From contig CAVPIW010000007.1 in assembly GCA_963705105.1 (NCBI GenBank), forward strand, positions 192,001 to 256,000: a stretch of DNA of 64,000 bases. Reading direction: 5' to 3'. The stretch comes from an uncultured Nitrospiraceae bacterium. GTDB taxonomy: Bacteria > Nitrospirota > Thermodesulfovibrionia > Thermodesulfovibrionales > Dissulfurispiraceae. A model generated the notes under the pieces. The model had not been told where the DNA came from and made no database searches. It worked only from the letters and a program-made list of their open reading frames with translations. Both the position numbers and the translations under genes were made by a program. Positions 10,634 through 59,912 of the stretch are shown here, in pieces; within the stretch, counting starts at the first letter, position 1, and every line of letters begins with the position of its first letter.

Positions 10634-10829
10634 ACCTTATCGATCACCAGACCACCCTTTGCCGTGTCTATCGATGACAAAAGTCCGCCAGGGAACAGGC
10701 GCTGAACACCCGGAGAAGTCTCATCATCGCATTGGAAAGGCTTTGAGCCATATCTGCTTTCCCGGAGGCAGCGTCGCCTTCAGCAAGGCCTTGAGGCGCC
10801 TCGCCCCGCCTTTTCAGCAACTGAAAGGT
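10634..10829 (+). repeat. Dispersed modular element (5'-truncated core type)
   Basis: Partial core module plus right arm; highly similar to the copies at 11434 and 30536. Confidence 0.85.
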
Positions 10830-10912
10830 AAAGAGAAAAAGCAATGAGACTAAAAAGGGGAGGATGAATGACTCACCCTCCCCTTCGAACGGTCGGAAAG
10901 ATCTGTGTTGCC

Positions 10913-11293
10913 TTAGATCTTCTTCATCTCCACGCCGCAGGTGCATTTGCCGGGGTTCTGGCCGATGGTGTCGCACTTGCACTCGGGGGGACAGGCGCAG
11001 GCATACTTGCCGTTGGTCTTGAAGGCCCTTGCCTTCTCCCAGCCTTCGGCCTTCATGGTCGCCGTGCCTGCCTCGGCCTTGACGACCTTCGCCTTCACCA
11101 TTTCCTTGCCGCAGGTGCATTTGCCGGGGTTCTTTGAAAGACTGTCGCAGGGGCACTTCTCACCGCAATTGCAGGCATAAATCTCATCGCCCGCCTTCAG
11201 GTCCATCTTGCCCCTCGAACCGGCAAACGAGAACGCCACCATCGCCATCGTCAGCACAACGGCGATAACCACCAAAAAAGTCTTCTTCGCCAT
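10913..11293 (-). CDS. Exported Cys-rich putative metal-binding protein
   Basis: Signal peptide; two YACxC...CxC.....PGKCTCG.EM repeats; GGAGG RBS. Confidence 0.8.
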   Translation of the reverse strand: MAKKTFLVVIAVVLTMAMVAFSFAGSRGKMDLKAGDEIYACNCGEKCPCDSLSKNPGKCTCGKEMVKAKVVKAEAGTATMKAEGWEKARAFKTNGKYACACPPECKCDTIGQNPGKCTCGVEMKKI

Positions 11294-11433
11294 ACATTAC
11301 CTCCCTGATTTATTTACGACATGTTTATTATAATGAACAGGTTATTCCCCTGTCAAACGGGCCTTGCACAGGGGGAGAGGGAGTCAATAAGGGTGCTTGA
11401 CGGGTTGACTTTCGTCCATCCATCAAGTAAGTT

Positions 11434-11801
11434 ACCCTTATCGTGTGCAACACACGCCCGGGAAAGGCGGGGCGTATGCGCCACATAACACTAATTAGTA
11501 GACAGAATACAGTAGACAATAGACGGAAAGCGAAGACAGGAACCAGATGACAAATACATCGACGGGATGGCTGGTGTGGTGAAAAGCCTTTCCTCTAAGA
11601 TACCTTATTCATCCCCAGACCACCCTTTGCCGTGTCTGTCGATACCAAAAGCCCGTCAGGCAACAGGCGCTGAACACCTGGAGATGTCTCATCATCGCAT
11701 TGGAAAGGCTTTGAACCATATCTGCCTTCCCGGAGGAAGTATCGTCGCCTTCAGCAAGGCTTTGAGGCGCTTCGCCCCGCCTTTTCATGCAACGACAGGG
11801 G
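11434..11801 (+). repeat. Dispersed modular element (complete; 7-mer block + core)
   Basis: Left arm GAAAGGCGGGGCGTATGCGCC, AGTAGAC repeats, nested IR core 11563-11732, right arm GGCGCTTCGCCCCGCCTTTTCATGCAAC. Confidence 0.9.
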
Positions 11802-11810
11802 CACTTTAAT

Positions 11811-12797
11811 ATGTTGACCTATATTGCGAAACGCCTCCTCCTCATGATTCCCCTCATCTTCGGGATCACCCTGATCACCTTCGTCGTCATTCACCTCGCT
11901 CCGGGCGGGCCTGTCGAAGTCGAGACGGAGATGTCCCTCAAGGCGTCGGCCCAGGCGAGGGAAAACCTGAAGAAGCTCTACGGCCTCGACAAGCCTGTCC
12001 ACGAGCAGTACATCGACTGGATTTCCCGCTTCGTCCGCCTCGATTTCGGCGTCTCCTTCGTAGACGGGAAGGCCGTCGTCGCGAAGATCAGGGAACGGAT
12101 ACCCGTCACCCTGACGATCAACCTGCTGTCTCTCCTTCTCATCATGATCATCGCCATCCCCATCGGCGTCATCTCGTCGATCAGGCAATATTCCCTCTTC
12201 GACAAGATAACGACGGTCTTCGTCTTCGTCGGCTTTTCCACGCCCACGTTCTGGCTTGCCCTCCTGCTCATGATCGTCTTCGGCGTCACTCTCGGACTGC
12301 TTCCCATATCAGGCATCCAGAGCATCGACGTCTCGGGCATGACCTTCCCGCAGAGACTGGCCGACTGGGCGGCGCACCTCGTTTTGCCCCTCGGGCTGAG
12401 CGCCTTCGGGGGCATCGCCGGGCTCAGCAGGTACTGCCGGTCGAGCATGCTCGAGGTCATCCGCCAGGACTATATCAGGACGGCCCGTGCCAAGGGCCTT
12501 GCGGAAACGACGGTCGTCATCCGCCATGCCCTGAGAAATGCCCTGATGCCCGTCGTGACCATCCTCGGCCTTGCCGTGCCGGGACTCATCGGCGGCAGCG
12601 TCATCTTCGAAACCATTTTCGCCATTCCCGGCATGGGCCAGCTCTTCTACGCATCGGCCATGTCGAGGGACTACCCGACGATCATGGGCATACTCGTCAT
12701 CGGCGCTGTTCTTACCCTGATCGGCAACCTCATCGCCGATGTATCGTACGCACTGGTCGATCCGAGGATACGCCGCGAGGCCCCCGGAAAAGAGTAG
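11811..12797 (+). CDS. ABC peptide/nickel transporter permease (OppB/DppB family)
   Basis: [32 protein letters not shown] motifs. Confidence 0.93.
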
Positions 12798-12874
12798 ACA
12801 CCCGACCGATGGTATCAAAAATAATGTGCCACGAGGATAGGGTATGATTTTTTCAAGATCTCGCTGCAACGTCG

Positions 12875-13063
12875 ACCTTATCATTGCATACGCCCGACCT
12901 GAAGGCGGGGTGCATGCGCCGAAAACCTTCGGTACTGCGAAACCTCTGCCTTCCCGTACAGACCATTTCAGGCTGACGATCGAACAAATTAACCTTTTAC
13001 GGACACTCACACTGACACTACACTTTTTTTCAGAGCGCTTCGCTCCGCCTTTTCACACGCAAG
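12875..13063 (+). repeat. Dispersed modular element (6-mer type)
   Basis: Same arms; ACACTC/ACACTG block; interior matches the reverse complement of 52858-53050. Confidence 0.85.
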
Positions 13064-13083
13064 AATAACAACCAGGAGGTATC

Positions 13084-13338
13084 ATGAAAAATAACAGGTC
13101 GCTTGTGACAATGCTCGTCGGGGCTCTTCTTATCGCCCTGCTGCTCTGTGGCTGTTCGGGGAACAAGGCCGCCGAGCTCTTCGAGACGGCGAAATTCGAG
13201 GAGCTGCAGAACAACAGGCAGCACGCGATCGAGCTCTATGAGGAGATCGTCAAGAAGTATCCCGAGAGCGACCAGGCGAAAAAAGCCAAAGAGCGGCTCA
13301 CCCAGCTCAAGGGAGACAAGCAGGGCGCAACGCCTTAG
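13084..13338 (+). CDS. Small TPR-like lipoprotein
   Basis: Lipobox LCGC; A.ELYEEIVKKYPES..A motif; AGGAGG RBS. Confidence 0.8.
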   Translation: MKNNRSLVTMLVGALLIALLLCGCSGNKAAELFETAKFEELQNNRQHAIELYEEIVKKYPESDQAKKAKERLTQLKGDKQGATP

Positions 13339-13362
13339 GACTCGGGGGGAGGTCGGCGACAA

Positions 13363-14205
13363 ATGCTGCGCATCATCTGGACACGATTCAGGAGGAACCG
13401 CCTCTCCGTCACGGGGCTCGTCGTCATCGTCCTTCTCGCCTGCATCGCCGTGCTCGCTCCCCTCATCGCCCCCTTCACGCCCACGGAGATCGACGTCTAC
13501 AATGCCCTTTCACCGCCGAACTTCTCCCATCCCTTCGGGACGGACGAGCTGGGCAGGGACGTGCTCTCGCGCATGATCTGGGGAAGCAGGGTTTCCCTCA
13601 GGGTGGGGTTCTTCGCCGTGGGCATCGCCATTCTGACGGGAACATTCGTGGGGTCTCTCGCAGGTTTTTACGGCGGCAGGATCGACGCCCTTCTTATGAG
13701 GTTCGTCGACATCATGCTCGCCTTCCCCACGTTCTTCCTTATCCTTGCCGTCATCGCCATCCTCGAACCGAGCATATCGACGATCATGATCGTCATCGGC
13801 CTGACGGGATGGATGGATGTGGCGCGCCTTGTGAGGGCCGAGTTCCTGACCCTCAAGGAACGGGACTTCGTGGCGGCGGCCCGCGCCGTCGGCGCGACGG
13901 ACAGCCGGATCATCGTGCGGCACATCATGCCCAATGCCCTCTCGCCCGTCTTCGTCGCCGCCACCTTCGGCGTTGCAGGGGCCATCCTGACCGAGTCGGG
14001 CCTCTCCTTTCTCGGCCTCGGCGTCCAGCCGCCCGACCCGAGCTGGGGGAACATCCTGACCTCGGGCAAGGACAACATCATCGTCGCCTGGTGGCTCTCC
14101 CTCTTTCCGGGACTTGCGATCCTCGTGACGGTCCTGAGCTACAACCTCGTCGGCGAGGGGCTGCGGGACGCCCTCGACCCGAGGCTCTGGACGAGCGACT
14201 CCTGA
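13363..14205 (+). CDS. ABC peptide transporter permease (OppC/DppC family)
   Basis: HPFGTDELGRD, ESGLSFLGLG, GEGLRDALDP motifs. Confidence 0.93.
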   Translation: MLRIIWTRFRRNRLSVTGLVVIVLLACIAVLAPLIAPFTPTEIDVYNALSPPNFSHPFGTDELGRDVLSRMIWGSRVSLRVGFFAVGIAILTGTFVGSLAGFYGGRIDALLMRFVDIMLAFPTFFLILAVIAILEPSISTIMIVIGLTGWMDVARLVRAEFLTLKERDFVAAARAVGATDSRIIVRHIMPNALSPVFVAATFGVAGAILTESGLSFLGLGVQPPDPSWGNILTSGKDNIIVAWWLSLFPGLAILVTVLSYNLVGEGLRDALDPRLWTSDS

Positions 14206-14210
14206 CGGTC

Positions 14211-17141: not shown

Positions 17142-17162
17142 CCTATTTTGATAACCAGTGCG

Positions 17163-17435
17163 TGCACCTTCCGGAAGGCGGGCCGACGCGTCTCAAATCC
17201 TTGCTGATATCGACGCTGTCTTCGGGAAGGCAGATATGGTTCAAAGCCTTTCCAATGCGATGATGAGACATCTCCAGGTGTTCAGCGCCAGTTGCCTGAC
17301 GGGCACTTGGCATTGATAGACACGGCAAAGTGTGGTCTGGTGATAAACAAGGTATCTTAGAGGAAAGGCTTTTCACCACATCAGCCTTCCCGGTCGGCTG
17401 TTCGGGGCCTTCTTCCGACTACTGACGACTGTCTC
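17163..17435 (-). repeat. Dispersed modular element (core type, inverted, left arm lost)
   Basis: Reverse complement of core and right arm; abuts the next copy. Confidence 0.85.
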
Positions 17436-17436
17436 T

Positions 17437-17649
17437 ACCTTATCGTTGCAATACACTCCCGGAAAGGCGGGGTGTATGTGCCGAAAACCTTGCTGCGGCG
17501 ACACCTGCATCAAGACGAAAGACAAACTATACGCAAATGGTCGATGACACAAAGAGTGGAATCCTGAAACACGAAGATGACAATGATCATCGTCGCCTTC
17601 AGCAAGGCTTTGAGGCTCTTCGCCCCGCCTTTTCATGCAACTGTAGGGT
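17437..17649 (+). repeat. Dispersed modular element (long-arm type)
   Basis: Arms extended by AAAACCTTGCTGCGGCGAC / GTCGCCTTCAGCAAGGCTTT; very similar to 59699-59912. Confidence 0.9.
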
Positions 17650-17771
17650 CTATACTTTGCGCTCCTTGCGGCTTTGCGTGCGTGAGTCAAAAATACTGCC
17701 GGGCTCACATCAATGCTAAAATGAAGATATAAGCCGCATGCCCCAAGTATCCGTGCCCGGGAGGTTGAACG

Positions 17772-19709
17772 ATGTCGAACAGACTGAAAGACGCAAGAAG
17801 CCCTTACCTGAGAAAGGCCGCCGATCAGCCCGTTGACTGGCATGAGTGGGGAGACGAGGCCTTCGAGAAGGCCCGCAGGGAGGACAGGCCCATATTCCTT
17901 TCCATCGGGGGCGTCTGGTGCCACTGGTGCCACGTCATGGCCCATGAGAGCTTTGACAACGAGGAGATCGCCGGTATTCTGAATAGTCATTTCGTTCCCG
18001 TCAAGGTCGACCGCGACGAGAGGCCCGACATCGACCGCCGGTACCAGGATGTCGTCCTGAGCATTGCCGGAAGCGGGGGATGGCCCCTCACGGTCTTTCT
18101 CACTCCCGAGGGAAAGGCCTTCTTCGGCGGCACCTATTTCCCTCCTGATGACAAGTGGGGGAAGGCAGGCCTGAAGCAGCTCCTGGGGAAGATCATCGAC
18201 CTGTACAGCCAGAAAAGAGAGGAGATCTTCGGCCTCGCCGAAAACCTCTATCGCCAGAGCCTCTCCTTCTCCTCCCAGGACATGAAATCGGACGTCGACG
18301 AGGGACTCATCGAAAAGGCGGTGGGGAAATGCCTGTCCTCCGTCGATTACGACCACGGGGGTTTCGGGTCGGCGCCGAAGTTCCACCACGCCATGGCATA
18401 CGAATTCCTTCTCAATTACAATTATTTCGCGAAGGATGAGAGGATCGCACGTGCCGTCGGCGTTTCCCTCGACGGCATGGTCCGGGGAGGCATTTACGAC
18501 CACCTTGCCGGCGCCTTCTTCCGCTATTCGACGGACGAGAAGTGGATCGTCCCCCACTTCGAGAAGATGCTCGCCGACAATGCGGAACTGCTGAAGGTAT
18601 ACTCCATCGCCTATCAGGTCACGGGGAACGAGCTCTACCGGTACGCCGCCGAAGGCATCGTCGATTATTACAGGCAGTTCGGCATGGATGACAAGGGCGG
18701 TTTCGCTGCGTCACAGGATGCCGATATCGGCGTCCTTGACGAGGGAGGCTACTATACCTTCAGTCTCAACGAAGTGAAGCCGCTCCTGACGGGCGCGGAA
18801 CTGGAGGTGATGCGCCTCCACCTCGATATCGACGAACAGGGTGAAATGCATCACGATACCTCGAAAAACGTCCTGTACATGCGCCGCAGCGCCGAAGAAG
18901 TCTCCGCGAAGCTGCAGGTGCCCGTCAAAACCGTCGGGGACCTCATCTCTTCGGCGAAGGATAAGCTGAGAAAGTACAGGGAAGAGCGCGAGATGCCTTA
19001 CATCGACAGCACAATCTACACGAACTGGAACAGCCTCATGATCGAGGCTCTCTGCAGGGCCGGCATCGTCTTCGGCACGAGCGAATACCACGATATGGCC
19101 CGGAAAACGGCCGATCTGCTCCTGAGGGAATTCTACAAAGACGGCGCCGTCCTGCACTGTGAGGGCGTCGAGGGACTATCAGAGGATTACATCTTTTTCG
19201 CCAAAGGGCTCCTGGCACTCTTCGAGGTGACCCAGGACGCGACATATCTCGACGTTTCGGTGCGCCTGATCGACAGGGCCATCGAGCTTTTCTGGGATGG
19301 AGACAACTGGGGGTTCTTCGATACAACCAGGAGGGACAGGGGCTACCTGACGATCCCGATCAGGAATATCCAGGACACGCCGAACGAGTCCGTCAACGGC
19401 ATCGCCCCGCTCATTCTCCTCACCGTCGGGACACTGACGGGCGACATGACGTACATCGATTACGCGGGAAAGAACCTGCAGGCATTCTCGCAGCTCACGG
19501 CTGAATACCCCACCGCCACCCACTCCTATTTCGTCAGCCTCCTCGCATACCTCAGGGGCATGTACAAAGTCGAGACGTCGCGCTTCTTCGACGAGGCGCT
19601 CAGGGACTTCAGGCCCTACAAATTCGTCCTGCGGAAAGACGTCCCCGGCGTCGTTGTCTGCGAGAAAGACACCTGCAGGACCTTCGAATCCTATCCTGGC
19701 AAACCTTAG
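17772..19709 (+). CDS. Thioredoxin-domain protein, YyaL/SSP411 family
   Basis: SPYL, WCHWCHVMAHESF, KVDRDERPD, GGWPL, PHFEKML motifs. Confidence 0.93.
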   Translation: MSNRLKDARSPYLRKAADQPVDWHEWGDEAFEKARREDRPIFLSIGGVWCHWCHVMAHESFDNEEIAGILNSHFVPVKVDRDERPDIDRRYQDVVLSIAGSGGWPLTVFLTPEGKAFFGGTYFPPDDKWGKAGLKQLLGKIIDLYSQKREEIFGLAENLYRQSLSFSSQDMKSDVDEGLIEKAVGKCLSSVDYDHGGFGSAPKFHHAMAYEFLLNYNYFAKDERIARAVGVSLDGMVRGGIYDHLAGAFFRYSTDEKWIVPHFEKMLADNAELLKVYSIAYQVTGNELYRYAAEGIVDYYRQFGMDDKGGFAASQDADIGVLDEGGYYTFSLNEVKPLLTGAELEVMRLHLDIDEQGEMHHDTSKNVLYMRRSAEEVSAKLQVPVKTVGDLISSAKDKLRKYREEREMPYIDSTIYTNWNSLMIEALCRAGIVFGTSEYHDMARKTADLLLREFYKDGAVLHCEGVEGLSEDYIFFAKGLLALFEVTQDATYLDVSVRLIDRAIELFWDGDNWGFFDTTRRDRGYLTIPIRNIQDTPNESVNGIAPLILLTVGTLTGDMTYIDYAGKNLQAFSQLTAEYPTATHSYFVSLLAYLRGMYKVETSRFFDEALRDFRPYKFVLRKDVPGVVVCEKDTCRTFESYPGKP

Positions 19710-20110
19710 TGTTGCATGCTCCGGACATGAAGGCGGGGCGTATGCGCCACCGTGATAGTCAATAAGTCATTGAGTCACTAAGTCATTGAACGACAGTCGA
19801 CAATGGACACAAAACCGCGTGCGTCACGACGGTAAGGCTGATGTGGTGAAAATCCCTTCCGCTAAGATACCTTATCGATCACCAGACAACCCTTTGCCGT
19901 GTCGATCGATGACACAGGACCGTCAGGCAACCGGGGGCTTAACACCTGGAGAGGTCTCATCATCGCATTGGAAAGGCTTTGAATCATATCTGCCTTCCCG
20001 GAGGGCAGACGTTTGGGATGAAATCATGATAAACGAACTTGGAATGATCAATCTCGCAATCAGCGAGGCTTTAAGGCGTTTTGCCCCGCCTTTTCGCGCG
20101 ACTGCAAGGT
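19703..20110 (+). repeat. Dispersed modular element (8-mer block + core)
   Basis: Left end overlaps the upstream stop codon; AAGTCATT/GAGTCACT block; core 19830-20000; right arm. Confidence 0.88.
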
Positions 20111-20120
20111 TTACTGTGCC

Positions 20121-23675: not shown

Positions 23676-26600
23676 GTGAAAGTGAATGAAAGACCCAGGC
23701 CAGGCGCCACAGGCAGTGGACGTTTTGTATCGATCGGATGTCTCATCGCTTTTTTTCTTCTGATAACATGCCTGCTATCCCCTGAGGTCCCGGCAGGGGT
23801 CAAGATCGTCCCCAGCGGCAACTCTTTGACGGTATTTGCAACCTTTACGGATTGTCGTGAATGCTGTGATGACTTCTGTAGCCCATCCTGTATCATCAGC
23901 TGGTACGGCGGACAAGCCTGGTATAGTGCGGTGAAGTTGGACGGTTCATCCAGCGGGGGCGGGTGCGACTCCGGTGACAGCTATACAGCTACCTGCGGTA
24001 CATTCGTCGCTTCCTGGGACGACATCGTGTACGTAAGGGGAAGGGCCCACGTCTGCAGTGAGTATGAATACGACACGCAATATATAGACTATTTCGACCG
24101 ATGCGAGAATAAACATCCCACCGACTCTGCCGTCAACGTCCTGACCGGCAACCTCTCCCACTCCCCGCAGGTCGGCCCTCTGGCGATCAATTACGACAGC
24201 CTGGGAACGATGAGCCCTCTGGGACGCGGATGGTCCCATGCCTACTCCAGGCGCATCAGGCAGGCACCGTATAACGGACCGACCGTCCTGCTGCAGACCA
24301 GCTGGCGCGACAGGATACGGTTCGAGCGGGGGAGCGACGGGCTCTTCCACTCGGCTTCACCCCGCGACAGATCGGTGCTCACAAAGAACCCCGACCTGAC
24401 CTGGACACGGAGTGAGCCCAACGGCACCGTCTCCACCTACGGCGCCGACGGCTACCTCCGGACGGTCACGGACAGTAACGGCAACGTCACCCGTCTGACC
24501 TACAGCGGCTTCAACCTCAGGACCATCACCGACCCCGTCGGCAGGACCATCCAGATCACCACCAACAGCAGCGGCAGGATTACCGCCGTCAAGGACTATG
24601 CGGGCAACAGCTATACGTTCACCTATACAACGGTCCCGACATACGGAGACCTCCTGACAAGGATCACCGACCCCCTGGGCAACGCATGGATGTTCACCTA
24701 CACGAGCGACGGCAAGATGAGGACCAAGACCGACCCGTCCGGCAGCGCCGTCACTTACACATATACAGCGGGCGGCACTGTTCAGAAGGTCGAAGACCCC
24801 GAGGGAGCATCCATGGAGTTCCGGTATGCCCCGTCTCCCATTTCCTGCGGACCCTCGGGCTCTCCCTGTAACATCGAACCGGAAAGCATCGCCGAAGTGA
24901 CGGCGAAAGACGGCGGCATCTGGAAATACCACTACCGAACGGGCGAACACGTCCCCTATAAGGTCACGGACCCTCAGGGCAATACCAAGACGTATCAATA
25001 CGACGGCAGCGGCAACCTCATCGGCAGCAACGACGACCCGTCAAGCGACGGGACGACCTATACGTACGACACCAACGGCAACATGCTGACCATGACAGAC
25101 GCCATGGGAGCGGTAACACGATACACCTACAACGCTCTGAACAAACCCTTAACCATGACCGATCCCCTCGGCAACGTGACGACGTATACCAATGACGCCA
25201 AGGGGAACATGCTGACCATGACGGACCCAACGGGGAACATAACAACCTATGAATACTACCCGTCAGGGAAAGTGAAAACCGTCCGGAACCCTCTGAATCA
25301 GGTGACGGCCTTTACCTACGACCAGTACAACAACCCGGCGACCGTCACCGACCCCGCCGGGGGGATAACGCGCTTCACCCACGACATCTTGGGCAACATG
25401 CTGACCAGGACGGACCCCATGGGAAACGTCTCGAGATACGAATACAACGCACTCAATCAGGTCGTCCGGATGACCGATGCCCAAGGTCATGTCACAACCT
25501 ACTCCTACGATCCCAAGGGCAACCTCACGACAGCGACGGACGCGAACGGTAACATAACCCGTTATGAATACAACTACCGGGGGCAGACGACGAAGGTCAT
25601 CGATCCCCTGGGAGGAACGACGAACTATACCTATGGAAGCATGGGTTGCACCACCGGTTGCGGGGGAGGAAGCGATAAGCTCACATCGATCACCGATCCC
25701 GCCGGTAATACGACAACATACACCTATGACACCGCCGGCAGACTGATCAAGGAGACCGATCCCGAAGGACATGAGACCCTCTTTACCTACGATCCTGCCG
25801 GGAATGTCGCATCCAAGACCGATGCAAACGGTGTTACAGTTACCTACGCCTATGACCCGGTGAAGCGCCTCACACAGGCGACGTATCCCGACCCGACGCA
25901 AAATGTGAGCTATACCTATAATGCGCCCGGCAAGGTGCTCTCCGTCACCGATCCGTCGGGAACGACGACTTACGCCTATGACAGCATCGGCAGTCCCCTG
26001 AGTGAAACGAAAGCGATCGATGGAGACAACTACACCACAAGTTATTCCTACAACGCCGCAGGAAGCCTGACATCCATAACCTATCCCGGCGGACGAACCA
26101 CGTCGTACAATTACGATCAGGTTGGAAGGATCGCCTCCGTCACGGAGAGCAAGAACGGCACGACCAGAAATGTCATCAGCGGGATCACCTACAATGCAAA
26201 CAGCCTGGTATCGCAGATGACCCATGGCAACGGGATCGTCACCTCCAAAACCTATGATCCCCTGAACGCCTTGAGCAGCCTGCAGATCGGGCCACACAAA
26301 CATCTCACTTATACCCGTGACGCCATCGGCAACATAACGGCAATCACCGATCAGCTTGATCCTGCAAAGACGAAATCCTTCGTCTACGATCCTCTGTATC
26401 GTTTAACACAGGCAATTGGGCCGTGGGAAACACTCCAATACGGCTACGATCCCGTCGGCAACAGGACGACGGAATCGATGAACACTTCAACGACGAGCTA
26501 TGCATACACCGCCAACAAGCTCACATCATCCACGGGATCGAAGACATTTGCCTTTGCGTACGATAACAATGGAAACACCGTCATGGAAAACCAGAGACAG

Positions 26601-27374
26601 TTCGTCTATAATCAGAATCAGAGACTGATCAGGGCGCTGGAAGGAACGACCGTTCTGGGTGAATACGTCTATAACGCAAAAGGTCAGAGGGTAAAGAAGA
26701 CCGCTGGTGGACAGACGACCCTGTATCACTATGACCTGCAGGGTAACCTCATAGCTGAATCAACGGCAGACGGAACGATCAGGACGGAATATGTCTACCT
26801 GAACGGACAGCCCATCGGAAAGATCGAAGGGAACAATCTGTCTTACTATCACACCGACCATCTCGGCACGCCGATGATCATGACCGATACCGCTGGCGCC
26901 AAGGTGTGGGAGGGTGAGTTCCTGCCCTTCGGAGAACCCCTGTCGATCACGGGCACCGAGACGAACAATCTCCGTTTTCCCGGGCAATATCATGATCAAG
27001 AGACAGGGCTTGACCAGAATTGGCACAGGGAGTATAAACCAGAGATAGGAAGGTACATGAGCGTCGACCCGATTCTAACACCTGGAAATCCTTATGTGCC
27101 TTTCATGATGCCTGCTCTTCTTAAGAAACCTGCAATGCTACATGCTTATAATTACGTGGAAAACAACCCTGTTAACAAAAGGGATCCCTTGGGTTTGATG
27201 TCATGCGGTGGGTGTAATTTGAATGATTGTCTAAATGCCTGCACTGCTGGAGGGGTAGCGTTGCGGAATTTCTGCCGCTCATTGCCTGACCCGCGATTGC
27301 GTGCTGGTTGCTGGGCTTTGGAGTTTGTTGGCGAAAATGTATGTAAGGGCTGGTGTTATTGGAACTGCAGGTGA
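23676..27374 (+). CDS. RHS/YD-repeat protein with N-terminal hydrophobic leader and Cys-rich C-terminal tip
   Basis: Many YD repeats; YYHTDHLGTP, LRFPGQY.D.ETGL, NNPVNKRDPLGL core. Confidence 0.95.
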   Translation: MKVNERPRPGATGSGRFVSIGCLIAFFLLITCLLSPEVPAGVKIVPSGNSLTVFATFTDCRECCDDFCSPSCIISWYGGQAWYSAVKLDGSSSGGGCDSGDSYTATCGTFVASWDDIVYVRGRAHVCSEYEYDTQYIDYFDRCENKHPTDSAVNVLTGNLSHSPQVGPLAINYDSLGTMSPLGRGWSHAYSRRIRQAPYNGPTVLLQTSWRDRIRFERGSDGLFHSASPRDRSVLTKNPDLTWTRSEPNGTVSTYGADGYLRTVTDSNGNVTRLTYSGFNLRTITDPVGRTIQITTNSSGRITAVKDYAGNSYTFTYTTVPTYGDLLTRITDPLGNAWMFTYTSDGKMRTKTDPSGSAVTYTYTAGGTVQKVEDPEGASMEFRYAPSPISCGPSGSPCNIEPESIAEVTAKDGGIWKYHYRTGEHVPYKVTDPQGNTKTYQYDGSGNLIGSNDDPSSDGTTYTYDTNGNMLTMTDAMGAVTRYTYNALNKPLTMTDPLGNVTTYTNDAKGNMLTMTDPTGNITTYEYYPSGKVKTVRNPLNQVTAFTYDQYNNPATVTDPAGGITRFTHDILGNMLTRTDPMGNVSRYEYNALNQVVRMTDAQGHVTTYSYDPKGNLTTATDANGNITRYEYNYRGQTTKVIDPLGGTTNYTYGSMGCTTGCGGGSDKLTSITDPAGNTTTYTYDTAGRLIKETDPEGHETLFTYDPAGNVASKTDANGVTVTYAYDPVKRLTQATYPDPTQNVSYTYNAPGKVLSVTDPSGTTTYAYDSIGSPLSETKAIDGDNYTTSYSYNAAGSLTSITYPGGRTTSYNYDQVGRIASVTESKNGTTRNVISGITYNANSLVSQMTHGNGIVTSKTYDPLNALSSLQIGPHKHLTYTRDAIGNITAITDQLDPAKTKSFVYDPLYRLTQAIGPWETLQYGYDPVGNRTTESMNTSTTSYAYTANKLTSSTGSKTFAFAYDNNGNTVMENQRQFVYNQNQRLIRALEGTTVLGEYVYNAKGQRVKKTAGGQTTLYHYDLQGNLIAESTADGTIRTEYVYLNGQPIGKIEGNNLSYYHTDHLGTPMIMTDTAGAKVWEGEFLPFGEPLSITGTETNNLRFPGQYHDQETGLDQNWHREYKPEIGRYMSVDPILTPGNPYVPFMMPALLKKPAMLHAYNYVENNPVNKRDPLGLMSCGGCNLNDCLNACTAGGVALRNFCRSLPDPRLRAGCWALEFVGENVCKGWCYWNCR

Positions 27375-27378
27375 ACCC

Positions 27379-30469: not shown

Positions 30470-30535
30470 AATAAACCCAAACGTCGATACCCCCTCGGGA
30501 AAGGCGGGCTGTGTGCACCACGAACAGTGGATAAT

Positions 30536-30883
30536 ACCTCATCGTTGCAACACACTCCCCGGGAAGGCGGTGCGTATGCGCCGCTTAACAATAAACAGTA
30601 GACAATAGACAGCAGGCAAAGACAGGAACGAGACGACAAACACACCGACGGGAAGGCTGATGTGGTGAAAAACCTTTCCGCTAAGATACCTTATCGATCA
30701 CCAGACCACCCTTTGCCGTGTCTATCGATGACAAAAGTCCGCCAGGCAACAGAGACTGAACACCTGATATGTCTCACCATCGCATTGGAAAGGCTTTGAA
30801 CCATATCTGCCTTCCCGGAGGCATCATCGCCTTCAGCAAGGCTTTGAGGCGCTACGCCCCGCCTTTCCATGCAAGGACAAGGT
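30536..30883 (+). repeat. Dispersed modular element (7-mer block + core), preceded by an extra degenerate left arm at 30475-30520
   Basis: Colinear with 11434-11801; core at 30649-30817. Confidence 0.9.
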
Positions 30884-32254: not shown

Positions 32255-32447
32255 ACCCTGTCATCGCATACACACCCTCTGGAAAGGCGGGGTGCATGCG
32301 CCGAAAACCTTGCTGCGGCGACACCTATAACGTCTCAGAAGAAGTCGTTTCAAGCCGATGGCCTGAAAAAGCCGGCCTTTTTCTGATACTCACACTGACA
32401 CTGCTTTTCAGGGCGCTTCGCCCCGCCTTTTCACATGACTGCGCAGT
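32255..32447 (+). repeat. Dispersed modular element (6-mer type)
   Basis: Left arm + GAAAACCTTGCTGCGGCGACACC + ACTCACACTGACACTG + right arm. Confidence 0.88.
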
Positions 32448-47648: not shown

Positions 47649-47836
47649 ACCGTATCGTTGCAATACACTCCCGGGAAAGGCAGGGCGTATGCGCCGAAAA
47701 CCTTGCTGCGGCGACACATTTCCGTTACGAAAGGGAATATTTTAAGCCGATGGTCGAAAAGTGAGCTTTTTAATGACACGCACACTGACACTGTTTTTCA
47801 GAGCGCTTCGCCCCGCCTTTCAATGCAACTGCAAGG
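47649..47836 (+). repeat. Dispersed modular element (6-mer type)
   Basis: Same arms and modules as the copies at 32255 and 53976. Confidence 0.88.
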
Positions 47837-48463: not shown

Positions 48464-48486
48464 TCCTCTCCTGCCGCAGTCCGGGC

Positions 48487-49377: not shown

Positions 49378-49591
49378 ACTTTATCGTTGCAATACAGTCC
49401 CGGGAAAGGCGGGGCGTATGCGTCGAAAACCTTGCTGCGGCGACACCATAACTCTCACAGAAGACAACCTTTCAAACCAATGGTCGACCACACAAAGAGT
49501 GGACTCCTGAAAGACAAACCTGACGAGGAGTATCGTCGCCTTCAGCAAGGCTTTGAGGCACTTCGCCCCGCCTTTCTATGCACCTCAAGGT
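49378..49591 (+). repeat. Dispersed modular element (long-arm type), with an orphan right arm at 49321-49347
   Basis: Colinear with the copies at 17437 and 59699. Confidence 0.9.
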
Positions 49592-49690
49592 AATTTAACT
49601 TGTATCACATAATTCTTTCACTATTCTTTCACTTGCCCATGAGCAATATTAATGAATTTCTATTAATAGCTTCAACGGACCGTCAGCGGC

Positions 49691-52426: not shown

Positions 52427-52477
52427 AACACTCTCCTCATAATAACCTTATGCGCCCCTGTTTCCTTGAGGTTGTTC

Positions 52478-52884
52478 CACCCTTGTCCATAATATTTTGC
52501 AGCGAGACCTTGACAACGAGGACAGGGCGTGGTTTCTGAAGCATAATTCACGGTTGCCCTGCACGAAAAGACGGTGCAAAACAATCAAAAACCCTTTATT
52601 CAACGAATATCAGATTATCGGGGTCCTGTCCAATGATAATTTCTTATATGCTGATGATCCCTGCTAATAGCGACGACCCGCCCGAAAAGCATGGCGTTCC
52701 GCGGTATTGCGACGCTGGTGTCGTTGTGGGCGGGCATGACGGTTTTCTATTGATGCCGGGATGGCTTATAGTAAGAAGTCACCCTTGTCCGAAATATTTT
52801 GCAGCGGGACCTTGAAAACGAGGATAGGGTGTGTTTTCTGAAGCATAATTCACGGTTGCCTTGCGCGAAAAGACGGGGCAAAAC
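52478..52884 (+). repeat. 105-bp direct repeat pair (52478-52582 and 52780-52884)
   Basis: CACCCTTGTCC..AATATTTTGCAGCG.GACCTTGA.AACGAGGA...CTGAAGCATAATTCACGGTTGCC.TGC.CGAAAAGACGG.GCAAAAC occurs twice. Confidence 0.85.
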
Positions 52885-53050
52885 GCTCTGAAAAACAGTG
52901 TCAGTGTCAGTGTGAGTGTCCGCAAAAGGTTAATTTTGTTTGATCGTTGGTCTGCAATGGTCTGCACGGGAAGGCAGAGGTTTCGCAGCACCGATGCTTT
53001 TCGGCGCATTCGCCCCGTCTTTCCTGAGATCTCATTGCGGTGATAAGGGT
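52858..53050 (-). repeat. Dispersed modular element (6-mer type, inverted)
   Basis: Reverse complement of 12875-13063. Confidence 0.85.
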
Positions 53051-53137
53051 TTATTATGCGAAGAAATCATGCCCAATCCTCGTGTCACGTTATTTTGAAC
53101 AATAGTAAGAAGTACTATCTGCAAGGAGGTTTGTCCC

Positions 53138-53494
53138 ATGAAGAAAGGTTTGACAATAGTCGCCGCGGTGATGTCCGTCTGCCTGATCGGCCCGCTACAT
53201 ATGGCATCAGGCACTACGAAGCAAAAGACGGGGGAGTCGCTCTTCAACCAATTCTGCGCCGAGTGCCACGCCGATGGCGGCAACCTCATGAACCCACAGA
53301 AGACGCTGAGCAGGAAGGACCGTGAGGCGAACGGCATCAAGACGGCCGAGGACATCGTCAACAAGATGAGAAACCGGGGTCCCTTCGCGTCCCATCCGAG
53401 CAGCCGGACGACAATGAAGACATTCGACGAGGCCACCATTCCCGTCGATGACGCGTACAGAATCGCGAGGTATATCCTGGAAACCTTTCAGTAA
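53138..53494 (+). CDS. Monoheme class I cytochrome c (c6-like)
   Basis: Signal peptide; GESLF...CAECH.DGGN...P.KTL. Confidence 0.9.
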   Translation: MKKGLTIVAAVMSVCLIGPLHMASGTTKQKTGESLFNQFCAECHADGGNLMNPQKTLSRKDREANGIKTAEDIVNKMRNRGPFASHPSSRTTMKTFDEATIPVDDAYRIARYILETFQ

Positions 53495-53499
53495 TAAAG

Positions 53500-53927
53500 A
53501 CAGTGTCAGTGTGAGTGTGGGTGTCAGTGAAAGGAGCGTTTGTCAAAAACGAAATGTTGACGCCCTCGAATGACTCAGTGACTTAATGACCCAATGACTC
53601 AATGACTATAGAGGTGAGTGTGGGTGTCAGTGAAAGGCGTGTTTGTCAATAACGAAATGCTGACGCCCTCGAATGACTTAATGACTCAATGACTCAATGA
53701 CTGTAGAGGTGAGTGTCAGTGTCAGTGAAAGGCGTGTTTGTCAAAAACGAAATGTTGACGCCCTCGAATGACTCAGTGACTTAATGACCCAATGACTCAA
53801 TGACTATAGAGGTGAGTGTCAGTGGAAGGAGCGTTTGTCAAAAACGAAATGTTGACGCCCTCGAATGACTCAGTGACTTAATGACCCAATAACTCAATGA
53901 CTATAGAGGTGAGTGTCAGTGGAAGGA
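53500..53927 (+). repeat. Tandem array, four full units (103, 95, 103, 97 bp) plus a partial fifth
   Basis: Unit = GTGTCA-type 6-mers + GTTTGTCAA.AACGAAATG.TGACGCCCTCG + four or five AATGACTC-type 8-mers + TAGAG. Confidence 0.95.
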
Positions 53928-53975
53928 CGGATTCTCGCGCAAAGACGCCAAGTTCGCCAGGCACGGCCAGAATAT

Positions 53976-54172
53976 ACCTTATCGTTGCAATACACTCCCG
54001 GGAAAGGCGGGGTGTATGCGCCGAAAACCTTGCTGCGGCGACACCTTAACCGTAACAAAAAGTATCTTTCAAGCCAATGGTCGAAATATGATCCTCTTTA
54101 CTCACACTCACACTGTCACTGTCACTGTTTTTTTAGAGCGCTTCGCCCCGCCTTTCTATGCAACCACAGGGT
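53976..54172 (+). repeat. Dispersed modular element (6-mer type)
   Basis: Same arms; flanks extend the IR (GAATAT-ACC...GGT-ATATTC). Confidence 0.9.
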
Positions 54173-54237
54173 ATATTCCACACACAGACACTGTCACCGT
54201 GCGGACACTGCTCAAGCGGCCTGTGGTATAGTACTGT

Positions 54238-54618
54238 ATGCTCTACGGTAAGAAGGCTATAGAGGAGGCCGTGCTGGAGATATGGGACAACCCGTCTCCG
54301 GAGCGGGATTACGAGATCTCCATCTCCTTCCCCGAGTTCACCTGCCTGTGCCCCCGCTCCGGGTACCCCGACTTCGCAACGATCAAAGTGCTCTACGTGC
54401 CGGACGCGAAGATCGTGGAGCTCAAGTCCTTCAAGCTCTACCTGAATGCATTCCGGGACCGGCACATCTCCCACGAGGAGGTCACGAACAGGATATTCGC
54501 GGACCTGGAAAAGGCCCTGGCGCCGAGGTTCCTCGAGGTGACGGGCGACTTCAACCCCCGGGGCAACGTGAAGACCGTCGTGCGCGTTACGGCAGGGCGG
54601 ACCTCGCCTTCTCGATAA
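54238..54618 (+). CDS. queF: 7-cyano-7-deazaguanine reductase
   Basis: [27 protein letters not shown] motifs. Confidence 0.95.
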
Positions 54619-55198
54619 ACTGCCGCATCTTTCTCAGGTCCTTCTTGCCTTTCTCCGACTCGATCCCGCTGCTGACATCCACGCCGTAGGGTCTGACCCA
54701 CTGGATCGCCCGCCCGACGTTGTCGGGATTCAGGCCTCCCGCAAGGATAACACGGCCGAACCTGCGGGCCTCCTTTGCGATGTCCCAGTTGAAGATCTGC
54801 CCCGTGCCGCCGTAGGACACGGGTGAATAGGTGTCGAGAAGGAGGGCCGACACCCTGTATCTCTCCAGAGGCCTCAGGTCGGTGAAGTCCTTCACTCTGA
54901 GGGCCTTGACGACCCTGTTCCAGTGCCGGCAGACATCGGGAGGCTCGTCGCCGTGGAGCTGAACGACGGAGATCCCCGTCTGCCTCACAATCGCGGTGAT
55001 GCGCTCCGGTTTCTCGTTGACGAAGACCCCGACGGCAGCGACGAAGGGCGGCAGGAAGGAAATGATCTCTGCCGCCCTTTCGGGCTCTATCGACCGGGGG
55101 CTCCTGTCAAAAAAGACGAAGCCCAGCGCGTCGGCGCCGTAATCGGCAGCGGCAAGGGCATCCTCCGTGTTGGTGATGCCGCAGATCTTGATCCTCAT
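54587..55198 (-). CDS. trpF: Phosphoribosylanthranilate isomerase
   Basis: KICGIT, QLHGDE, GGTG..F.W, LAGGL, DVSSG motifs. Confidence 0.96.
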
Positions 55199-55211
55199 GA
55201 ATGCAAAACCA

Positions 55212-56564
55212 TCAGATCACTGCAAGCTTCGCGAGGGACTCCCGGATCTTCTCCTCGGGATAGGCGTAATCGATGAGCTTGCCGGCGAGGTAATCCGCAT
55301 AGGCGGCGAGGTCGAGATAGCCATGGCCGCTGAGGTTGAAGAGGATGCACTTCTCCTTTCCTTCCTCCTTGCAGAGCAGGGCCTCATCTATGGCCGCCCG
55401 TATGGCGTGGGCGCTCTCGGGGGCGGGAATGATGCCCTCGGTCTGCGCAAAGGTCAGGGCAGCTTCGAAGATCGCCGTCTGCCCGTAAGATTTCGCCTCG
55501 CAGAGTCCGTCATGATAGAGCTGTGACAGGAGCGGAGAATCGCCGTGATAACGGAGCCCGCCCGCATGAATGCCGGGAGGCATGAAGTCGTGGCCGAGGG
55601 TGTACATCATGAGGAACGGCGTCAGGCCGACGGTGTCACCGAAATCATAACGGAACTCTCCCTTCGTCAGGGTGGGACAGGAGCTGGGCTCGACGGCGAT
55701 GGCCCTCAGCTCCTTGCCGTTGATCTTGTCCAGGAGAAAGGGGAAGGCGATGCCTCCGAAATTGCTGCCGCCGCCGCAGCAGCCGATGATGATATCGGGA
55801 TAGTCGTTGACGAGGGCGAGCTGCTTCTTCGCCTCCAGACCGATGACGGACTGGTGAATGACGACGTGGTTCAGGACCGAGCCGAGGGCGTAGTTCGTGT
55901 CGCCGTGGGTCGCCGCATCCTCGACGGCCTCGGAGATGGCGATGCCGAGGCTGCCCGGCATGTCGGGATCGGCCTCGAGGAGTTTCCTCCCGGAATTGGT
56001 GACCGTCGAGGGGCTCGGGTGAACAGTGGCGCCCCAGGTCTCCATGGCGATCCTGCGATACGGTTTCTGGTCATAACTCACGCGAACCATATAGACGGTG
56101 ACCTCGATGCCGAAGAGCTTGCCCGCAAGGGCCATGGAGGATCCCCACTGCCCGGCGCCCGTCTCCGTGGCGATCCTCCTGATGCCCGCCAGCTTGTTGT
56201 AGTAAGCCTGGGGAACGGACGTGTTCGGCTTGTGGCTGCCTGCAGGGCTCACGCCCTCGTACTTGTAATAGATCCTGGCCGGGCTGCCGATCGCCTTTTC
56301 GAGCCTATGGGCCCTGTAAAGAGGGGAAGGCCTCCAGAGCGTAAAGATGTCGAGCACTTCCCCGGGGATGTCGATCCACCGCTGCGGGCTCATCTCCTGT
56401 TCGATAAGGCCCATCGGAAAGATGGCCAGCAGGTCGTCGGGTCCGACGGGCTGCTTCGTCCCCGGGTGGAGAGGCGGCTTCGGAAGATTCGGCATGTCGG
56501 CCATGATGTTGTACCATTGACGGGGTATTTCACTCTCAGGCAGGATGATTTTCGTCTCTTGCAT
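55212..56564 (-). CDS. trpB2: TrpB2-type tryptophan synthase beta
   Basis: [33 protein letters not shown] motifs. Confidence 0.93.
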
Positions 56565-56722
56565 GATCCCTCCAGGATGTTGTTTTTCTTATATACGTAA
56601 CGTCCCCCGGCGCCGTCAAGACGGGCATGATCGCTTCGGGCCATTACCAGTATATCATAAAGAGATATGTGATATAATAGCAGATTCATGAGGCTGAAAC
56701 GCATTACTGGAGGTGATCGCCC

Positions 56723-57925
56723 GTGAGTGCGCGCACGGAAAGACTTCCCGACGGAAAAGGGTATTTCGGCGCTTTCGGCGGACGGTTCGTGCCGGAGACG
56801 CTGATACCCGCCCTCGAGGAACTCACAAAGGCCTATGAGGACGCCTGCGAGGACCCTTCATTTCAGGCGACGATCGATCACCTCGGAAAGACATATGTCG
56901 GGCGGCCGACGCCGCTCTATTTCGCCCGCCGTCTCACGGAGCACCTGGGGGGAGCAAAGGTCTACCTGAAACGGGAGGACCTTGCCCACACGGGCGCTCA
57001 CAAGATCAACAACGCCCTCGGCCAGGCACACCTCGCCAGAAGGATGGGAAAGAAACGGCTCATCGCCGAAACGGGCGCCGGTCAGCACGGCGTTGCAACG
57101 GCAACGGGCGCTGCGCTGACGGGACTCGAATGCGCGGTCTACATGGGGTCCGACGACATTCAGCGTCAGATGCTCAACGTCTTCAGGATGAAACTCCTCG
57201 GCTCGGAGGTGATCGAGGTGCCTGTCGGTTCCCGCACCCTGAAGGACGCCATCAATGAGGCATTGCGCGACTGGACCACGAACGTGAGGACGACCCACTA
57301 TGTGCTGGGCACCGTCTTCGGACCTCATCCCTTTCCCCGGATCGTGCGGGACTTCCAGTCCGTCATCGGCAGGGAAACAAAACGGCAGATCGTCGAGGCA
57401 GAGGGAAGGCTGCCGGACCTGATCATCGCCTGCGTCGGCGGCGGCAGTAACGCCATGGGCATCTTCAACGATTTCCTCGCAGACGACGTCGCACTGACCG
57501 GCGTCGAGGCGGGGGGAAGGGGCATAGCCACGGGCGAGCATGCCGCGCGGTTTGCAGGCGGCTCCCTCGGCGTCTTCCAGGGATGCAAGAGCTACCTGCT
57601 CCAGGACGACGACGGCAACGTCCTCGGCACCCATTCCGTATCGGCCGGTCTCGATTATGCGTCGGTGGGACCGGAGCACTCGTACCTGCGGGAGCAGGGT
57701 CGGGTGACCTACCGGTATGCGACGGACGACGAGGCCCTTGCGGCATTCGAGCTTCTGAGCAGGACCGAGGGGATCATCCCGGCCCTCGAATCGGCCCACG
57801 CCGTGGCTGAGGCCGTCAAGCGCGCCCCGGAAATGCCGGCGGAGGCGATCATCGTCGTCAACCTGTCGGGCAGGGGCGACAAGGACGTTCAGCAGGTCGC
57901 CCGCCTTAAAGGCTTCGGGATGTGA
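56723..57925 (+). CDS. trpB: Tryptophan synthase beta chain
   Basis: [28 protein letters not shown] motifs. Confidence 0.97.
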
Positions 57926-57938
57926 GGGGCAGGGACCG

Positions 57939-58736
57939 GTGACGAGAATCGGCGAGACCTTCGGCCGCCTCAAATCGCAGGGACGCAAGGCATTCATTCC
58001 CTATATCATGTGCGGCGACCCCGACCTGCGCAGAACCCGGGAGCACCTCGCTGTTCTCATCGAGGGCGGCGCCGACATCGTCGAACTGGGGGTGCCTTTC
58101 TCCGACCCCCTCGCCGACGGCCCCACCATCCAGAGGGCCGCGGAGCGGGCCCTGGAGGCAGGCGTCACCCTGCGCACGATACTCCCCTTCGTCCGGGAGC
58201 TTCGCCGGGATTGGGACATCCCGATCGTGCTGATGACATATTACAATCCCGTCTTCAGGTACGGCGAAGAGAGGTTTCTGATCGATGCCGCCCAGGCGGG
58301 CGTCGACGGGCTCATCGTCCCCGACCTCCCTCCCGAGGAGGGAGATTCGCTCCGTCTGCTCGCCGCCCGCGCAGGGATAGACACGATTTTTCTCGTCGCC
58401 CCGACGTCCGGGAAGGACCGGATTCAGGCGGTCGTCACTGCGAGCAGCGGTTTCGTCTATTATGTATCGATGACGGGCATCACCGGTTCGCGGATCTCCG
58501 TCGACAGTGCGCTGATGAATCACCTGAAGGCGGTCAGGGAGCGGACCGACAAACCCGTCGCAGTCGGTTTCGGCGTGTCGACGCCTGAAGATGCCGCCGT
58601 CATCGGCTCTCTTGCCGACGGCGTCATCGTGGGCAGTGCAATCGTCAAGAAGTTCTATGAGCATCCCAAGGGGGCCCGTGACTTTATCGTCTCCCTCAGG
58701 AGAGCGATCGACAGCGGCCCCGGCGCGGGGGCATAG
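57939..58736 (+). CDS. trpA: Tryptophan synthase alpha chain
   Basis: ELGVPFSDPLADGPTIQ, MTYYNP, VGFG motifs. Confidence 0.97.
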   Translation: MTRIGETFGRLKSQGRKAFIPYIMCGDPDLRRTREHLAVLIEGGADIVELGVPFSDPLADGPTIQRAAERALEAGVTLRTILPFVRELRRDWDIPIVLMTYYNPVFRYGEERFLIDAAQAGVDGLIVPDLPPEEGDSLRLLAARAGIDTIFLVAPTSGKDRIQAVVTASSGFVYYVSMTGITGSRISVDSALMNHLKAVRERTDKPVAVGFGVSTPEDAAVIGSLADGVIVGSAIVKKFYEHPKGARDFIVSLRRAIDSGPGAGA

Positions 58737-58783
58737 AAAAAGCCGGTGAGAGCCCCGGCAATCGTCGGAATGACAGGGATCCT

Positions 58784-59647
58784 ATGGCCTGGTTCAAGAA
58801 GAAAAAAGAAAGCAAAACGGACCGCAAGGTGAAAATTCCCGAGGGACTCTGGGTGAAGTGCGACAGTTGCCGGGAGATCATCTACAAGAAGGAGATCGAA
58901 AAGAACCTCCAGATCTGCCCGAAGTGCAATTACCATTTCCGCATCAGTGCCACGGAGCGCATCCATTTTGTCGTCGACGAGGGCAGTTTCACGGAGCTCG
59001 ACGCCGGCCTCGCCTCGCCGGACCCTCTCGATTTCAGGGATACCATTTCCTATGGGGAACGGCTTGACGAAAACAGGAAGAAGAGCGGGCTGAAGGAGGC
59101 CCTCATATACGGTGAAGCGGCGATCAACGGCAGGCCCGTCATCATCGGCATTATGGACTTTTCCTTCATGGGCGGCAGCATGGGCTCCGTTGTCGGTGAG
59201 AAGATCGCCAGGGCCGCCGAACTGGCCCTGGAACGCCGCATTCCCCTGATCACCGTCTCCTCCTCGGGCGGCGCGCGCATGCACGAGGGCATGTTCTCGC
59301 TCATGCAGATGGCAAAGGTATCGGCGGCGATCGGGAAGCTCAGGCAGACGGACGTCCTTTACATATCCGTCCTCGCCGACCCCACCTTCGGGGGTGTGAC
59401 TGCCAGCTTTGCCATGCTCGGTGACATCATCATCGCCGAACCGAAGAGCCTGATCGGGTTTGCCGGGCCCCGCGTCATCGAGCAGACCATAAAGCAGCAG
59501 CTTCCGGAGAACTTCCAGCGCGCCGAGTTCGTCCTCGAACACGGGATGATCGATCTCGTCGCAGACCGTAAGGAGCTGAAGCAGACCATCTTCAGGCTCA
59601 TCGACCATTTCATGCCGGCCCCGCCTGGAACACCGGACAACACATGA
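58784..59647 (+). CDS. accD: Acetyl-CoA carboxylase carboxyltransferase beta
   Basis: LWVKC..C zinc finger, GGSMG, SGGARM.EG, FAGPRVI motifs. Confidence 0.97.
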   Translation: MAWFKKKKESKTDRKVKIPEGLWVKCDSCREIIYKKEIEKNLQICPKCNYHFRISATERIHFVVDEGSFTELDAGLASPDPLDFRDTISYGERLDENRKKSGLKEALIYGEAAINGRPVIIGIMDFSFMGGSMGSVVGEKIARAAELALERRIPLITVSSSGGARMHEGMFSLMQMAKVSAAIGKLRQTDVLYISVLADPTFGGVTASFAMLGDIIIAEPKSLIGFAGPRVIEQTIKQQLPENFQRAEFVLEHGMIDLVADRKELKQTIFRLIDHFMPAPPGTPDNT

Positions 59648-59698
59648 GATCATTGCTGTCCAGAAGCAGGACTTTGAGGCGCTTCGCCCTGCCTTTTC

Positions 59699-59912
59699 AC
59701 CTTATCGTTGCAATACACTCCCTGGAAAGGCGGGGTGTATGCGCCGAAAACCTTGCTGCGGCGACACCTGTATCGAAAGGGCAGACGAACTATACGCCAA
59801 TGGTCGATGACACAAAGAGTGGAATCCTGAAACACGAAACTGACGAGGCGTATCGTCGCCTTCAGCAAGGCTTTGAGGCGCTTCGCCCCGCCTTTTCATG
59901 CAACAGAAAGGT
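59699..59912 (+). repeat. Dispersed modular element (long-arm type), with an orphan right arm at 59665-59698
   Basis: Between accD and folC; very similar to 17437-17649. Confidence 0.92.

Follow-up and report, generated by a model that had tools for sequence, protein, structure and literature searches.

A stretch of 64,000 nucleotides from an uncultured Nitrospiraceae bacterium (contig CAVPIW010000007.1, positions 192,001 to 256,000 of the forward strand; hereafter the window) carries thirteen related repeats in the gaps between its genes, and the question it raises is what these repeats are and which enzyme moves them. The initial annotation, made from the letters of the window, called them a "MITE/REPIN-like" system, that is, one resembling either MITEs (miniature transposable elements with inverted repeats) or hairpins of repetitive extragenic palindromic (REP) sequences. 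Analysis of the host assembly (GCA_963705105.1, here G000; a draft of 4,226,846 bases in 19 contigs, given as C-numbers, 99.4% complete) and of other genomes points to a MITE of ~195–215 bp with CC...GG ends and 4-bp target duplications, which is likely mobilised in trans by the DDE transposase of a subgroup of IS1380 insertion sequences (ISs) that shares its ends and target. The probability of this reading is put at about 0.8.

Abundance, ends and mobility of the element

BLAST of the assembly with five window copies as queries returns 682 merged loci that cover 146,141 of the 4,226,846 bases, and a stricter module scan (at least two modules per locus) returns 591 loci and 136,156 bases. The family makes up 3.2–3.5% of the genome, at 140–161 loci per Mb or one copy per ~7 kb. 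Properly paired arms less than 450 bp apart number 295, and the right-arm pattern has 240 matches, against none for a backwards control pattern. The main size classes are 195–213 bp, the inverted ends are imperfect and 13 bp long, and the interior holds no similarity to a transposase. The intergenic position reported for the window is borne out genome-wide, with 13 of the 194 full-length copies (those with both terminal anchors present) inside open reading frames (ORFs) of at least 200 aa, compared with 61% of random placements. On every criterion tested, the family is a gene-less MITE.

The boundaries of the element were located by a duplication scan over all boundary offsets and direct-repeat lengths of 2–6 and 8, with shuffled pairings as the control. 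The scan has a single peak at 4 bp for an element running from CC to GG. The true left end is one base later than the start given in the initial annotation, and the A/T bases flanking the CC and GG belong to the duplication. Exact 4-bp duplications flank 93 of the 194 full-length copies (10.2 when shuffled). The duplicated words vary (TAAA 19, TTAA 15, TTTA 14, TATA 6, and others), and 75 of the 93 have the form T-N-N-A. Ranked by identity to the closest sibling, from at least 97% down to below 85%, the exact duplications number 25/29, 22/39, 15/31, 21/46, and 9/47, and the duplication decays with the age of the copy. Siblings that are 98–99.5% identical lie in different targets with different duplications. 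A piggyBac-like carry-over of donor flank, considered as an explanation for mismatched duplications, is not needed, given that almost every young copy has an exact one. Insertion of the staggered double-strand kind, as catalysed by DDE enzymes, leaves a sequence-variable target duplication; RAYT (REP-associated tyrosine transposase) enzymes of the HUH type are not known to leave one. The sequence-variable 4-bp duplication therefore indicates staggered insertion of the DDE type rather than by RAYT/HUH.

Related strains from other studies, represented by sequencing runs X3, X4, and X8 with flanks ~93–97% identical, carry element-free alleles at three window sites, on contigs with 124–255 letters on the shorter side. 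The 10635 copy is missing in X4 (joint 10628–10853), the 11435 copy in X3 and X4 (joint 11362–11803), and the 12876 copy in X3, X4, and X8 (joint 12801–13074), where 74 upstream bases (12802–12875) are missing too. The initial annotation had held that a lack of presence/absence variation at orthologous sites would argue against mobility, and these three sites show such variation. The accD-folC gap, which it had proposed as an empty site, is occupied in X4 too. The view that the element is non-autonomous, mobile and mobilised in trans is supported by the duplications, by near-identical siblings at unrelated sites and by the element-free alleles. In the related strains, the elements have a summed depth that exceeds flank depth by a factor of tens to hundreds, which gives no copy number and is consistent with many copies in those strains too.

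The right-arm pattern occurs in 2 of 401 genomes of the phylum, the host (240 matches) and G004 (21), a genome of another genus within the host's family, and a DNA search likewise finds 2 of 41. In G004 there are at least 42 copies of a sister element of ~210 bp with the same ends.

The candidate helper and its rivals

Elements of the IS1380 family have CC ends and duplicate 4–5 bp. The CC ends and 4-bp duplication of the MITE thus suggest IS1380 as the family of its helper. PF13701, the domain of IS1380-type transposases, is matched in 44 of 121 genomes of the order. Among 22 such loci inspected (L-numbers here denote loci of other genomes and of metagenomes), L082 and L085 have ends in the MITE register (CC, five bases, GTTGCA), as do L083 and L084, both 60–62% identical to L082. 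With the NCBIfam IS1380 model, whose cut-off is 180 bits, the L082 protein scores 240.7 and the L085 protein 223.9. A 1518-bp member of this subgroup is present in one genome as 10 copies, all 100% identical, and 7 of the 9 copies fetched have an exact T-N-N-A duplication. In a metagenome set consisting of the best 80 of 371 relatives, the left end was found at 58 loci and the right end at 60. The two ends have distinct profiles, differing at positions 4–7, and both are flanked by T-N-N-A-like words. Against these profiles, 189 of the 194 copies of the MITE have a left end that scores as the right inverted repeat of the IS (IRR), and 160 have a right end that scores as the left inverted repeat (IRL). 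The subgroup is also present in the host's own family (G449, 61% identity). Judged by sequence comparison, the ends and target of the MITE match the IS1380 subgroup in left/right asymmetry, in duplication length and in the T-N-N-A target.

In the mechanism proposed here, the IS1380-subgroup transposase would bind both 13-bp ends of the MITE and insert it at T-N-N-A sites with a 4-bp stagger, and intergenic DNA is where inserted copies would mostly be retained. The helper IS may have been present recently and then lost, or may lie in DNA missing from the assembly.

Several results weigh against this reading. No PF13701 match or other cognate transposase was found in the draft assembly, and an 88-sequence profile run over its six frames gives nothing below E 8. 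No cognate transposase was found in G004 and no genome was found with both IS and MITE; a type i copy matched none of five IS-bearing genomes, a comparison made without a positive control. The interior of the MITE is no more like the sub-terminal DNA of the IS than shuffles are, so the link to the IS lies in 13 bases per end and the target. The shared central hexamer served as the anchor for locating both the MITE ends and the metagenome IS ends, and agreement in that column is therefore built in. The ten-copy 1518-bp IS has boundaries that do not depend on this anchoring. Exact duplications flank just 7 of 44 single metagenome copies of the IS (L136–L215), possibly owing to collapsed or chimeric assembly of repeats, or as a real feature. 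The G004 elements give duplication counts of 1/26 and 0/25, from ends that are visibly mis-anchored. None of the three empty alleles restores a clean single target, as 17 (10635), 53 (11435), and 5 (12876) other letters stand between the flanks. The copies at 47650, 49379, 59700, and 19704 are common to the relatives; contigs of the relatives run into their arms, so those insertions are shared and many insertions are old. As for the exchange of modules discussed below, no pair of copies has a near-identical right half with a different left half. Given that no helper was found in the same genome and the interior is not IS-derived, the element is classed as a MITE with IS1380-type ends.

Several other leads were rejected within G000. 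Two weak tblastn matches (E 0.06–0.08) considered as IS transposases are unsupported by the profile search, PF13366 has no match, and the contig ends show no cognate IS end. The initial annotation had suggested looking for a copy whose arms enclose a gene such as a transposase; no copy enclosing a cognate transposase is in the assembly, where the 11 of 13 long arm pairs that were read enclose housekeeping genes, or IS3 and ISL3 elements inserted into copies. Cargo capture between distant ends is likewise not borne out in G000. An ORF that is presumably nitrogenase NifD-like stands between two solitary arms at C5:155861–157324.

The resident DDE transposases, comprising 15 PF01609 (DDE_Tnp_1) and 2 PF13546 matches, were rejected as helpers in general, since their ends are unlike those of the MITE. 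The best candidate among them is a single element encoding 511 aa at C14:214905–215651, which we take to be IS1182-like. It is resident in the host, has a TCAA duplication and carries GTTGC near both ends, and IS1182-mobilised MITEs are on record (PMC11578231). However, it is present in one copy, and its symmetric ends are shorter by one base in register and unlike those of the MITE at the first six bases. The ends of the IS1380 subgroup, in contrast, agree with the MITE base for base and show the same left/right asymmetry. Among the remaining 14 DDE_Tnp_1 matches, the ends are unrelated and the duplications mostly 5 bp long. Movement of the same MITE by a different resident DDE transposase is considered improbable. 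Least probable of all is a REPIN-type element whose mobility depends on a RAYT, a single-strand HUH enzyme, despite the small GC-rich hairpin in each arm and the four Y1_Tnp genes of the host. This reading is largely refuted by the sequence-variable 4-bp target duplication. Moreover, the four RAYT-like genes (C5:264358–265311, C5:339353–340258, C6:957389–958360, and C7:292476–293141, the last with partial duplicates beside it) each have tight boundaries formed by an unrelated short inverted repeat of their own and no adjacent MITE copy, and the GTAG-type REPs found inside some copies are a separate family carried as a passenger. Of the double label in the initial annotation, "MITE" stands and "REPIN" does not.

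A different kind of alternative holds that transposition explains dispersal only, and that the long internal hairpin is kept for the host as an RNA or single-stranded DNA structure, such as a terminator, a processing site or a stability site. The type i copy at 59700 folds as one long hairpin of -92.5 kcal/mol (z -7.4), and 0 of 200 shuffles are as stable. At 8 of 17 consensus pairs both sides have changed across three subfamilies, subfamilies and the G004 element alike keep a length near 212 bp, and four RNA runs (X17–X20) hold a small share of the query (0.05–0.08). However, the covariation comes from just three related lineages, so it hints at maintained symmetry without proving an RNA function. 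The consensus fold is also weak in energy (-5.7), stable folding is expected of any inverted repeat, and gene conversion between the arms produces that signal as well. The window has no Rfam match at the gathering score, convergent gene pairs are not favoured (20 of 89), and the relatives do without three of the copies. A host function for the hairpin is accordingly rated as quite unlikely, and mobilisation by the IS1380 subgroup is retained as the preferred reading.

Subfamilies, nesting and the copies of the window

The initial annotation recognised at least four interior architectures (types i to iv) and proposed that the element swaps modules. The exchange is real but of an ordinary kind, in which homologous halves that diverged from a single ancestral element have recombined near the middle, with nested inserts added. 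In a consensus alignment, types i, ii, and iii, two further types with left half Lb, the 170-bp core and the G004 element are colinear, with type i, the core and the G004 element alignable over their whole length. The four architectures are colinear subfamilies derived from a single ~212-bp ancestor, with reshuffling in the middle of the element and a load of nested copies, short tandem blocks and REPs. The left half has two variants (La and Lb), as does the right (long and 6-mer). The 6-mer right half replaces part of the long one and shortens the element from ~212 to 195 bp. Among 180 copies of at most 300 bp (11 left unclassified), all four combinations of La or Lb with long or 6-mer exist, in 99, 57, 9, and 4 copies. 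Exact duplications occur within each combination (53, 27, 3, and 1, respectively), which indicates that each moved as a unit. In 20 pairs of copies the left 100 bases are alike within 4 mismatches and the right module is different. Types ii and iii share a homologous 6-mer half, which calls for one recombination or more. The halves would have been exchanged by recombination at a shared central stretch, the likely crossover zone.

The longer forms are probably the product of insertion into, or uptake of, older copies, short tandem blocks and REPs, the 170-bp core being an older sister subfamily. The 120 cores include 36 intact ones enclosed by the two outer arms and 20 intact ones that have neither arm. 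The layout of the 59700 copy, inserted in an older right arm, has 4 occurrences genome-wide, two copies are inserted into cores, and IS3, ISL3, and IS1634-like elements are inserted into or against MITE copies. Tandem blocks and REPs were counted within 250 bp of an arm and elsewhere, giving 231 and 88 for the 6-mer, 39 and 22 for the 8-mer, 19 and 9 for the 7-mer, and 35 and 18 for the GTAG-type REP. The 9-mer blocks that adjoin MITE copies at window 17652–17690 and 53930–53975 number 16 near arms and 37 elsewhere genome-wide. Four-helix-bundle (PF05635) genes at C9:319934–320251 and C6:828540–828851 are flanked by inverted hexamer arrays. The C9 arrays are made of the 6-mer found inside the MITE, and the C6 gene directly adjoins the right half of a MITE. 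As the same 6-mer forms inverted arrays round the C9 gene, it likely derives from a separate repeat system.

All thirteen copies listed in the initial annotation, with their arms and four interiors, are present in the window (Table 1). Exact duplications flank 4 of the 12 copies checked (10635, 17438, 53977, and 59700, with 17163 left out). The 10635 copy had been called truncated. Mere truncation does not describe it, since it begins at an internal left-end look-alike and its duplication is intact. The left TAAA overlaps the stop codon of ORF 9899–10633. Such a start would fit the use of an alternative end, and a deletion between two 9-bp repeats explains it equally well. Cryptic alternative ends number 3 of 73 genome-wide against 0.7 expected. 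All three copies also have ordinary ends, and no general excess of cryptic right ends was found. One of the three is an internally deleted MITE of 70 bp, with both ends and an exact TACA duplication, on C6 near 1030686.

Table 1. Copies, remnants and terminal repeats of the MITE family in the window.
Feature	Position	Strand	Remarks
MITE copy, core-subfamily interior and standard right end	10635..10828	+	Starts at internal left-end look-alike; TAAA on both sides
MITE copy, type iv: 7-mer block and core nested between standard arms	11435..11800	+	Duplication inexact
MITE copy, type iii: left half Lb and 6-mer right half	12876..13070	+	Right end decayed, end approximate
Decayed, truncated copy: core and degenerate right arm	17163..17412	-	
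Full MITE copy, type i, 211 bp	17438..17648	+	TCTA duplication; sibling on contig C5 is 99% identical
MITE copy, type iv: 8-mer block, core and right extension	19704..20109	+	X3 contig runs into copy
Solitary left hairpin arm of older copy	30497..30520	+	Just upstream of 30537 copy
MITE copy, type iv: 7-mer block and core	30537..30882	+	
MITE copy, type ii: La and 6-mer right half	32256..32445	+	Ends decayed, end approximate
MITE copy, type ii	47650..47836	+	X3 and X4 contigs run into copy
MITE copy, type i	49379..49591	+	
MITE copy, type iii	52858..53048	-	Between two inverted arms of second repeat family
Full MITE copy, type ii, 195 bp	53977..54171	+	TATA duplication
Right-arm remnant of older copy	59675..59699	+	Last four bases are target of 59700 insertion (nesting)
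Full MITE copy, type i, 212 bp	59700..59911	+	TTCA duplication; upstream of folC ORF, overlapping folC start
13-bp terminal repeat matching right end (IRR) of IS1380-subgroup element	59700..59712	+	
13-bp terminal repeat matching left end (IRL) of IS1380-subgroup element	59899..59911	-	

The window contains other repeats as well. A second inverted-repeat family occurs at 12802–12874 and within 52500–53100, with two motifs counted 51 and 129 times in G000. Four tandem ~100-bp units of 6-mer and 8-mer blocks at 53524–53920 are found nowhere else in the genome (4 matches), and the stretch 53524–53974 is skipped in X3, X4, and X5 (short side 28 letters). A long hairpin at 1640–1707, presumably attC-like, has one match and is followed by a small GC-rich palindrome at 1760–1805. 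An RHS/YD-repeat protein of 1232 aa is encoded at 23676–27374, where X3, X4, and X8 give little cover and no joint across.

Significance and relation to known systems

The element is a very dense MITE of an apparently undescribed IS1380 type, with a known kind of mobility rather than a new mechanism. The initial annotation did not recognise a described family, and none was met in the literature searched, which was covered in passages; those passages describe no IS1380-type MITE, and the supplements of the Geobacter and MITE-census papers could list relatives. A bolder version is tentative and rather doubtful. In it, this would be the first described IS1380 (piggyBac-related) MITE and one of record density, with a ~170-bp hairpin interior of fixed length actively maintained by paired changes across subfamilies and genera. 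The element would also act as a landing platform for REPs, other ISs and the 6–8-mer arrays that otherwise flank four-helix-bundle genes, breeding chimeric subfamilies, and the 70-bp copy with its intact duplication would be the minimal mobile unit.

The assignment connects a very dense, unexplained repeat with one particular subgroup of transposases. The members of IS1380 are important in gene capture, yet how they recognise their ends is poorly mapped; hundreds of natural insertions give end and target rules for this subgroup. The family is also a natural data set for MITE subfamily recombination and nesting, a strain-typing marker, and possibly a minimal vector for delivery in a phylum where genetic tools are few.

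The closest known elements are those of the IS1380 family (ISEcp1, ISPme1, IS1247, and the ~1.52–1.67-kb subgroup L082–L085 and L122–L215), which share the CC ends, the 13-bp match with its asymmetry, and the 4-bp T-N-N-A target. The MITE differs from them in having no transposase gene, an unrelated interior and hundreds of copies. ISEcp1 is reported to have 5-bp duplications and alternative right ends (PMC12589106), the latter also for ISPme1 (PMC12589106, PMC9330008). The internal end of the 10635 copy recalls these alternative ends, with deletion an equally good explanation.

Correia, RUP, ERIC, Chunjie, and MITEPye1 resemble this MITE in being short, high-copy and intergenic, with terminal inverted repeats, target duplication and a stable hairpin (PMC3184786, PMC10969869, PMC11578231). 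Chunjie differs in its 21-bp ends and 9-bp direct repeats, compared with the 4-bp peak here (lengths 2–6 and 8 scanned). The Correia duplication is reported to be mostly TA, and MITEPye1 has IS1182 ends and 1–3 copies. Published highs include 711 copies of ERIC for Photorhabdus, 468 MITEs for Prochlorothrix, 123 per Mb for Wolbachia, and "up to 2%" of a genome. The density here is at or above the highs found, among which detection methods differ.

The multicopy intergenic sequences of Geobacter are similar in their paired inverted sites, 6–8-mer tandem blocks and several families clustered in one gap (Aklujkar 2009, 2010; PMC2700814, PMC2996986, main texts). They are set apart by the motifs quoted in those texts, and partial overlap with the supplementary alignments is possible. 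Modular elements are also known from streptococci, in the form of BOX. As far as the texts consulted describe them, BOX elements (67–637 bp) and Tn3-derived TIMEs likewise have variable mosaic interiors between conserved ends. Their ends and enzymes are unrelated to those of this family, whereas the modules described here are homologous halves that go back to one ancestor.

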